Below, piece after piece: positions 16,185 to 17,548 of a DNA stretch of 64,000 nt (positions within the stretch are counted from its first letter, which is position 1; each line of letters opens with the position of its first letter). Under the pieces are notes generated by a model that was not told where the DNA came from, ran no database searches, and saw only the letters and a list, made by a program, of their open reading frames with translations. The stretch lies in IMG/VR virus record IMGVR_UViG_3300029641_000003, one strand, 5' to 3'. Origin of the DNA: a virus. Lineage: Duplodnaviria; Heunggongvirae; Uroviricota; Caudoviricetes. The translations under genes were made by a program, and so were the position numbers.

Positions 16185-17548
16185 TAGTCATCCTCCGGCT
16201 GGTCTATCGCAATCTCGTCATCTACAGCATCAAAACCGGTATCCCCCGCGTCATAATCACCGTAGATATCAGCCGTGGCGGAAGGGTCTATATTCAGGTC
16301 TTCATCATTGGCCTCAAATTCACCGGCTTTACGTTCTCCGTTCCGGTCGTAATCCCCCATCCCAAGCCTATCAACGATTTTCGCTACTTCAGCCCGGCGT
16401 TGTGCAAGCCATTGTGGGAGTCCAGCTTGTTGCTCGGCAAACTGCTTCGCCTCTTTATCCAGTTGCTCATCATCAACATCGTTAACGTCAGAAACCGGAG
16501 GCTCCAGAAGTGAGATCGCTTTTGCCGCTCGTGCCGCCAGGATAGCCGGGACACTGACGCCCTGCCGCTCGATATATTCAGCAACACCTATATCATCCAG
16601 CTCCTCGCGCTCACGCATACGTATAGCGGCGGCGATAACTCTGGCGGCGCGTGCGTCAGCGCCAATGCGATACTCAATCTCCTTGCCACGCTGCTCGGCT
16701 TGTAGGCGGGCAATCGCCAGTTTTTCTCTGGCCTCAGCCTCCCTGAATGCCTGCTGACGCGCGCCCTGCGCAAGTTTTTCATCCCCCTGGCGTAGCTTCT
16801 GCTCGTTCTGATAGATGGCTGCCAGCCTGGTGATAAAGTCATTCATGTAGTAGGCAGCATCGCTGATCAGTCCGAGAAGACGTTGCCCTGGATGCATCCC
16901 CTCTGGCTGTGTATCACCGAGGGCATCAATCTCTTCCTGTAGTCGCTCCGCTTCCTGGTCAACGATAGCCTGATACTGAATTGCTCGTTCCTGCGCCATC
17001 TGTATCGCAAGTCGTAAATGTTCAGTCGCGCCGTTCTTCATCATCTCGCGGGCGACGTTGGTGGCAGGCAAAGTGGCGCTTTGAGCTGATGAATCAGGGA
17101 TCATTTGCAATGATCCCTTGTTTCGTTGGGCTTTTTCGCTGCTTTTAGGGATCATTTCTCCCATTTCATCACAAAATGATCCCTTTACATCCTTGTGTAT
17201 CTTGTTGTTATTATTTGGCTTTTCTTTGTGATCCGCATTTTGTTTTTGCGGCATGGCGCGGAACCGTCCACCAGCTAACGGTTTGTCAGTTTTTGTAAAT
17301 TCTGTGCTTTTATCAGCCTTTTTTTGCTCTTTTTTTGAGCCGGTGGCGCTGCTTTTTGCGCGCTGTTTTGTACTTTTCCCGGCAGCCTTAGCTTTCGCCT
17401 TAACCTCATTTTTTTTCATATTGAGATGCTTTCTGGCGGTGTTAAAGCTGAGGTCATGCTGCTCGCAATATTCTTTTATGGTGATCCCGGTTTCTTCTCT
17501 TAACTCCAGGAACTTAGCTCGATGCGCTTCCCAGTTAATTAACGTCAT
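16184..17548 (-). CDS. pacA: terminase small subunit PacA (contains pac site)
   Basis: 454 aa; N-terminal HTH; GATC-hexamer cluster within 5' part of the gene. Confidence 0.8.
   Translation of the reverse strand: MTLINWEAHRAKFLELREETGITIKEYCEQHDLSFNTARKHLNMKKNEVKAKAKAAGKSTKQRAKSSATGSKKEQKKADKSTEFTKTDKPLAGGRFRAMPQKQNADHKEKPNNNNKIHKDVKGSFCDEMGEMIPKSSEKAQRNKGSLQMIPDSSAQSATLPATNVAREMMKNGATEHLRLAIQMAQERAIQYQAIVDQEAERLQEEIDALGDTQPEGMHPGQRLLGLISDAAYYMNDFITRLAAIYQNEQKLRQGDEKLAQGARQQAFREAEAREKLAIARLQAEQRGKEIEYRIGADARAARVIAAAIRMREREELDDIGVAEYIERQGVSVPAILAARAAKAISLLEPPVSDVNDVDDEQLDKEAKQFAEQQAGLPQWLAQRRAEVAKIVDRLGMGDYDRNGERKAGEFEANDEDLNIDPSATADIYGDYDAGDTGFDAVDDEIAIDQPEDD
17096..17234. other. candidate pac site: clustered GATC-containing heptamers
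   Basis: GGGATCA at 17096 and 17147, TGATCCC at 17110 and 17176, TGATCC at 17229; all carry a Dam site. Confidence 0.7.

Follow-up and report, generated by a model that had tools for sequence, protein, structure and literature searches.

A GATC-element array inside pacA as the probable pac site of a D6-like phage-plasmid

The stretch of DNA analysed here (the window, 64,000 nt in length) is, judging from its sequence, a D6-like phage-plasmid or plasmid prophage and a distant relative of P1. The locus considered comprises the following genes and site.

13372-13403: rox site, an exact match to D6 rox, the D6 counterpart of P1 lox
14676-16184, minus strand: pacB (large terminase, pacase B, 502 aa), assigned through PHROG; it abuts pacA and is presumed to be the nuclease and motor
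16184-17548, minus strand: pacA (small terminase, pacase A, 454 aa), assigned through PHROG 1711 and D6 homology; it contains the array described below
17545-17937: lpa, which overlaps the start of pacA

Given the exact rox match and the gene order, the arrangement lpa-pacA-pacB-c1-rox therefore mirrors the arrangement lpa-pacA-pacB-c1-lox of P1. Following pacA transcription, the rox site is reached ~3.7 kb beyond the array; P1 lox is found ~4 kb from pac. One difference lies at the start of pacA, where the lpa stop and pacA start codons overlap at 17545-17548 (ATGA), in place of the 85-bp lpa-pacA gap with the late promoter LPpac that is found in P1. Because of this overlap, pacA transcription and translation in D6 types may differ from those in P1.

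The pacA gene of the window is 77% identical in DNA and 74% identical in protein to pacA of phage D6, annotated there as 'DNA pacase A subunit', and ~99% identical to pacA of E. marmotae and E. coli plasmids. In PLSDB, 121 plasmids match it. The PacA protein matches PHROG 1711 'terminase' at 1.9e-167, with an N-terminus that matches small-terminase families, and a pairwise comparison with P1 PacA gave 20% identity end to end (E=2e-08). A Pfam search returned no family for either PacA or PacB, a sequence search of solved structures gave no match to PacA, and a scan of genome contigs with the PacA alignment yielded no confirmed relatives. In one plasmid record, NZ_AP027414.1 (L004, 601-1965), pacA has an intact ORF of 1365 nt but is annotated as a 972-nt CDS, whose start leaves out the N-terminal domain and the entire pac-like array. 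Two genes upstream of pacA, a 191-aa ORF (18425-19000, minus strand) contains a Tad2-like (Thoeris anti-defence 2) domain (PF11195, E=5e-10). It matches D6 orf6, annotated as hypothetical, in position and in size (576 nt). Further on are four tRNA genes at 19455-20639 (minus strand), namely Met-CAT, Ser-TGA, Thr-TGT and Asn-GTT, where the D6 annotation has Ser, Thr and Asn only.

Within pacA, GATC-core elements are clustered at nt 314-453 of the 1365-nt ORF (23-33% in), which agrees with the original prediction of a cluster in the 5' third of the gene. That prediction had counted five GATC heptamers in ~140 bp. Five sites are present, with GATC at 17099, 17112, 17150, 17178 and 17230, and four of them are exact TGATCCC/GGGATCA heptamers at 17097-17103 (-), 17111-17117 (+), 17148-17154 (-) and 17177-17183 (+), but the fifth is TGATCCG, one base off the heptamer. 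The layout foreseen, two inverted pairs plus one, is correct from the strands and positions of the heptamers together with the fifth element. The true repeat unit is longer than the heptamer first noted, being 10-11 nt, AGGGATCATT(T). Its four exact copies, at 17096-17106 (+), 17109-17118 (-), 17147-17157 (+) and 17174-17184 (-), make up two inverted pairs inside 87 bp with arms 3 bp and 16 bp apart. Spacings between elements from s1 to s5 are 52, 28, 38 and 13 bp. The individual features are as follows.

17096-17106, plus strand: s5, AGGGATCATTT (AAATGATCCCT in the pacA sense); gene nt 443-453, codons Q-M-I-P; forms with s4 a 10-bp inverted repeat with a 3-bp spacer
17109-17119, minus strand: s4, AAGGGATCATT; gene nt 430-440, codons K-G-S-L
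17147-17157, plus strand: s3, AGGGATCATTT; gene nt 392-402, codons E-M-I-P; pairs with s2 in inverted orientation, the arms being 16 bp apart
17174-17185, minus strand: s2, AAGGGATCATTT; gene nt 364-375, codons K-G-S-F
17198-17210, minus strand: A/T-rich block TAACAACAAGATA between s1 and s2, conserved; an uncertain candidate IHF site
17229-17235, minus strand: s1, a weaker copy, CGGATCA; gene nt 314-320, codons D-H
17482-17488, minus strand: s0, candidate remote sixth element, exact heptamer GGGATCA; gene nt 61-67, where it codes for G-I-T of the N-terminal helical domain

The s0 element stands alone, 253 bp upstream of the cluster in the pacA sense. In D6 types, G-I-T at nt 61-69 is invariably encoded by GGG ATC ACN, while GGC/GGA ATT or GGG ATA is used in the lineages with a left cluster of elements. 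Because D6 types keep GGG ATC where the left-cluster lineages use other codons, s0 may be a sixth member of the array, although this assignment is uncertain. As to a promoter within the array, no sigma-70-like promoter was found in 16800-17700.

The heptamer GGGATCA/TGATCCC occurs 15 times in the window versus 7.1 expected. The exact 9-mer GGGATCATT is present in five copies in 64 kb, both strands counted, versus 0.43 expected, and none of 100 shuffles reached five; four of these five copies fall within 87 bp. Five GATC sites in 135 bp also constitute the densest GATC cluster of the window, at P ~0.22 under uniform placement of 222 sites. As GATC density by itself is this weak, the significance of the array rests on the extended motif and on its conservation across clades. 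Outside the array, a lone exact GGGATCATT is located at 47657-47665, and a heptamer inverted pair at 43345-43353 and 43379-43385 (CATGATCCC, 25 bp, GGGATCA) lies within an hdf/DarA_N-like ORF (42877-43518). Both the pair and the lone copy could be pseudo-pac sites or chance occurrences. The second-densest GATC group of the window consists of three GATCs in 29 bp (35321-35349) with a fourth 74 bp on (35420). It is positioned between pro-like and repL-like genes, has no shared extended motif, and could be related to a lytic origin.

Conservation was analyzed across 26 distinct D6-like pacA 5' regions, whose sources were phage D6, plasmids and contigs of IMG/VR. The window type is 65-67% identical to the D6 and Shigella/E. 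fergusonii types in the first 600 nt. GATC is nonetheless present at nt 63, 316, 368, 396, 434 and 447 in 24 of the 26 sequences, and the two exceptions (L033 at nt 368, s2, and L037 at nt 396, s3) have each lost one site by a single GATC-to-GACC transition. Because exactly one GATC of five is lost in each, single array elements seem to be dispensable, or else these copies are decaying. A pattern scan of metagenomes gave nine further D6-like contigs, all with the same GATC pattern over the stretch that each covers; four other matches were unrelated soil contigs.

Of the third-codon positions, 9 of 9 within the GATCs are invariant versus 47 of 171 outside (Fisher p=1.7e-5), and in the linker alone the counts are 7 of 7 versus 26 of 106 (p=1.1e-4). 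Both p-values treat kin as independent and thereby overstate independence, since the sequences fall into only ~3-4 deep clades, but the result points unambiguously in one direction. With the two site-loss sequences left out, GATC bases are invariant at 20 of 20 positions against a linker background of 39%. The GATCs of s4 (nt 434) and s5 (nt 447) are invariant in all D6-like sequences, as is the GGATCA of s1. At s4 the flanking G, which precedes the GATC, is changed to A in the Shigella/E. fergusonii type, replacing Gly with Arg, and the silent A of GGA/AGA never varies.

The array codes for residues 105-151, which belong to a linker (residues ~48-160) that is poorly conserved in a 5-sequence protein alignment. 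Invariant linker residues in that alignment include D106, S124, M132-I133-P134 and M149-I150-P151, which are the element-bearing codons. A single-sequence AlphaFold model of PacA, low in overall confidence and used only for its pattern of order and disorder, has a confident three-helix N-terminal domain, while residues 61-160 have a pLDDT of ~40 and no secondary structure. From this model the linker segment encoded by the array is probably disordered, and because the segment is modelled as unstructured a DNA signal would be able to dictate its codons. The word GGGATCAT is read as G-D-H in the Enterobacter type (55% protein identity) and as G-S and G-I in the window, so that all three frames are used across relatives. 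Taken at the level of sequence comparison, the GATC elements are under selection as DNA and not through constraint on the protein.

Arrays were also compared between 12 pacA lineages, these being P1, four D6-type groups, Enterobacter, two Pantoea, Serratia, Leclercia, Citrobacter and E. kobei plasmids. In 12 of 12 lineages the GATC density at pacA nt 140-480 is 12-26 per kb, versus 2-9 per kb in the remaining gene. The Enterobacter type (Enterobacter sp. pJBIWA008_2) carries the identical GGGATCATT word in a P1-like 3+5 two-cluster layout, with three direct GGGATCATT-type copies at nt 157-181 and five copies at nt 380-471. Pantoea plasmids contain six TGATCA at exact 12-bp steps, with a seventh in one of the two, and two more GATC further on. 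D6 and window types have a single five-element cluster, and no trace of a left cluster, even a degenerate one, was found in them. Individual elements have been gained and lost between lineages, and GATC is the only part of the element that is invariant across the P1/D6 supergroup. That elements turn over throughout the family while their GATC core stays fixed is, among the by-products of the analysis, the most interesting.

The A/T-rich block between s1 and s2 was considered as a possible IHF site. No match to the IHF consensus WATCAANNNNTTR was found with at most one mismatch. The conserved block TAACAAcaagATA has two mismatches to this consensus and resembles the P1 IHF site AAACAAAGAGTTA, a comparison made post hoc. 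The protein alignment of P1 and D6-type linkers is too poor for the P1 cut position to be carried over. In IMG draft genome 2537562191, the end of one contig (L038) and the start of another (L069) abut in pacA nt 320-329 with a 10-nt overlap, ATGAAAATAA, directly 3' of s1; this junction could be a physical DNA end or an accident of assembly. A pac site is unannotated in both D6 GenBank records, and literature text searches found no description of D6 pac, the D6 genome paper (Gilcrease & Casjens 2018), which may describe pac, being outside those searches.

Cleavage of P1 pac needs methylated hexamers (PMC10028697). D6 orf63 encodes a D12-class (Dam-family) N6-adenine methylase, and NZ_CP099353.1, with a pacA 99.3% identical to that of the window, also encodes a D12-class methylase; GATC specificity is assumed for these enzymes from their family, and both genes are outside the stretch that the window covers. 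Within the window itself no Dam methylase was found among ten larger ORFs; a 2282-aa DarB-like ORF, searched as well, matched an N6-methylase family other than Dam, and that at a borderline level only. P1 encodes the Dmt methylase, and fully methylated P1 pac sites are cut while hemimethylated sites are bound and left uncut. Sternberg & Coulby reportedly found in 1990 that hexamer methylation is required for P1 pac cleavage. Because the GATC core is invariant, relatives encode D12 methylases, and P1 has both Dmt and the methylated-hexamer requirement, it is reasonable to expect by analogy that the window array is probably gated by Dam methylation. In NZ_CP099353.1 (67.4-69.8 kb; L049, 15432-17845) the Dam-family ORF is 461 aa long with a C5-methylase fragment at its N-terminus. 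Neither this ORF nor a C5-methylase ORF is listed as a CDS in the PLSDB gene table, and the record may treat them as fused, as frameshifted or as pseudogenes.

Several other explanations of the array were weighed. If the linker peptides K-G-S-F/L and M-I-P were what is conserved, the GATCs would be a by-product of codon choice, and it fits such protein-level selection that in D6 types every element is in the same frame and on the same codon, and that D106, S124, M132-I133-P134 and M149-I150-P151 are invariant in the 5-sequence alignment. However, silent third positions in the GATCs (GGA/AGA, ATC, GAT) never vary whereas 72% of the others do, the adjacent Gly to Arg change occurs without loss of the GATC, a single DNA word is translated among relatives as G-D-H, G-S or G-I, and the segment is modelled as unstructured. 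Synonymous recoding of the P1 hexamers lowers titre ~9-fold (PMC10028697), from which it follows that the in-gene elements of P1 act at the DNA level. We therefore regard selection on the peptide as very unlikely. The inverted pairs might instead be kept as hairpins, either as a DNA cruciform or as stem-loops (a terminator or a processing site) in pacA mRNA or an antisense transcript. The window sequence does have a DNA MFE of -18.8 kcal/mol (z=-4.1), and the s5/s4 palindrome is terminator-like on the plus strand, antisense to pacA, with a weak T tail. Yet 12 diverse sequences gave no covariation: 11 of 21 pairs never vary, in nine of the other ten every departure breaks the pair, two-sided changes amount to 2 cells at the outermost pair only, and the covariation score is no better than that of slid controls. 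In D6, where the s4 arm is GGGATCTTC, only the GATC core of the stem is left, the Enterobacter type has the same word as direct repeats, and there is no promoter-like site nearby to feed an antisense terminator. With no covariation and arm changes that mostly break pairs, the inverted layout looks like a by-product of element orientation, and there is very little to recommend hairpins as the selected feature.

Clustered GATCs are typical targets of SeqA and Dam regulation, and the array could on that account be a regulatory site apart from packaging, tying pacA/pacB timing to replication or serving plasmid sequestration, with the real pac elsewhere. That the second, looser GATC group (35321-35349) is near the repL-like gene would suit such a role. 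Against it, the elements share 9-11 nt, far beyond what SeqA needs, and outside the array the 64-kb window has just one further exact copy of the 9-mer and no other cluster of it. The array also sits where P1 pac maps, inside the gene for the counterpart of the P1 protein that recognizes pac, and no promoter-like site was found in 16800-17700. A regulatory function separate from packaging is accordingly judged unlikely.

The best explanation, to which we assign a probability of roughly 0.7, is that the pacase of a D6-like plasmid prophage recognizes this cluster as its pac site, the counterpart of P1 pac in position and function. The array would then be the homologue of P1 pac expected for this gene, with an element sequence and layout of its own. 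By analogy with P1 we infer PacA binding, a cut nearby, the direction of packaging and the dependence on methylation. During late lytic growth the N-terminal helical domain of PacA would contact the GGGATCATT repeats, and the protein would probably occupy the two inverted pairs in dimeric or oligomeric form. The array DNA would be bent, with IHF or HU possibly assisting at the A/T-rich block that separates s1 from s2, after which PacB would cut nearby and headful packaging would run towards pacB-c1-rox. Cleavage would probably be gated by methylation, for which either host Dam or a D12-class methylase encoded by the element would be responsible, full methylation leading to cutting and hemimethylated sites being bound and left uncut, as in P1.

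A more specific and tentative proposal, which we think rather doubtful as a whole, is that D6 types dispense with a second cluster, with PacA dimers on two palindromes, each made up of a pair of asymmetric 9-11-bp elements, and the lone upstream element in the HTH-coding region looping over ~250 bp, and that across the supergroup pac is constant only in its GATC core while sequence, number, spacing and orientation are free. If this were true, methylation gating would be the conserved heart of the pac mechanism, and not a particular geometry of PacA on DNA. E. coli, Salmonella and Shigella commonly carry D6-like phage-plasmids. A defined pac would permit D6-based phagemid or delivery vectors, as for P1, and would help to predict which host or plasmid DNA is transduced through pseudo-pac sites. 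The dozen or so diverged pac arrays would then offer a natural series on DNA recognition by small terminases and on the reason for Dam gating. In addition, the array clearly illustrates how a DNA signal would dictate the amino acids of a probably disordered protein linker.

Among other known systems, P22, SPP1 and Sf6 have pac inside the small-terminase gene and package by the headful mechanism. Their terminases are unrelated in sequence, and their pac sites are not known to be GATC arrays or to be subject to Dam gating. As in the window, the recognition site is embedded in the gene of the recognising protein.

P1 pac offers the closest comparison, and its study is said to be due to Sternberg & Coulby (1987-1990) and Skorupski et al. 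(1992-1994). In the annotation of NC_005856, P1 pac consists of 4+3 TGATCA/G hexamers at pacA nt 195-229 and 325-348, the IHF site occupying nt 256-268 and the cuts falling at nt 276-284. At a P1-type pac site, PacA and PacB carry out the cleavage, for which IHF and HU are needed, and headful packaging then proceeds in one direction. Both arrays occupy the 5' third of pacA, in a linker-coding segment that follows the N-terminal DNA-binding domain, and in both the GATC-core elements are repeated (seven in P1, 5-6 in the window) over ~140-160 bp. The neighbours lpa, pacA, pacB and c1 are shared, followed by lox or rox ~4 kb away, and a phage-encoded Dam-family methylase is present in P1 and in the element family of the window. 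The element itself is different, being an asymmetric 9-11 nt GGGATCATT or CGGATCA in the window and a palindromic TGATCA/G hexamer in P1; on the other strand the window elements read TGATCC and never TGATCA/G. The layouts differ as well, as P1 has 4+3 near-phased copies around a ~95-bp spacer that contains the IHF site and the cuts, whereas the window has two inverted pairs plus one, amounting to a single cluster and a lone site in place of two clusters. As such, the original prediction of a parallel with the P1 pac array but with different flanking sequence is upheld on both counts. The flanks do differ (GGGATCATT versus TGATCA/G), and the parallel is supported by pacA homology, the same gene order next to pacB, several repeated GATC elements in the same part of pacA, DNA-level selection, and the occurrence of such clusters throughout the family.
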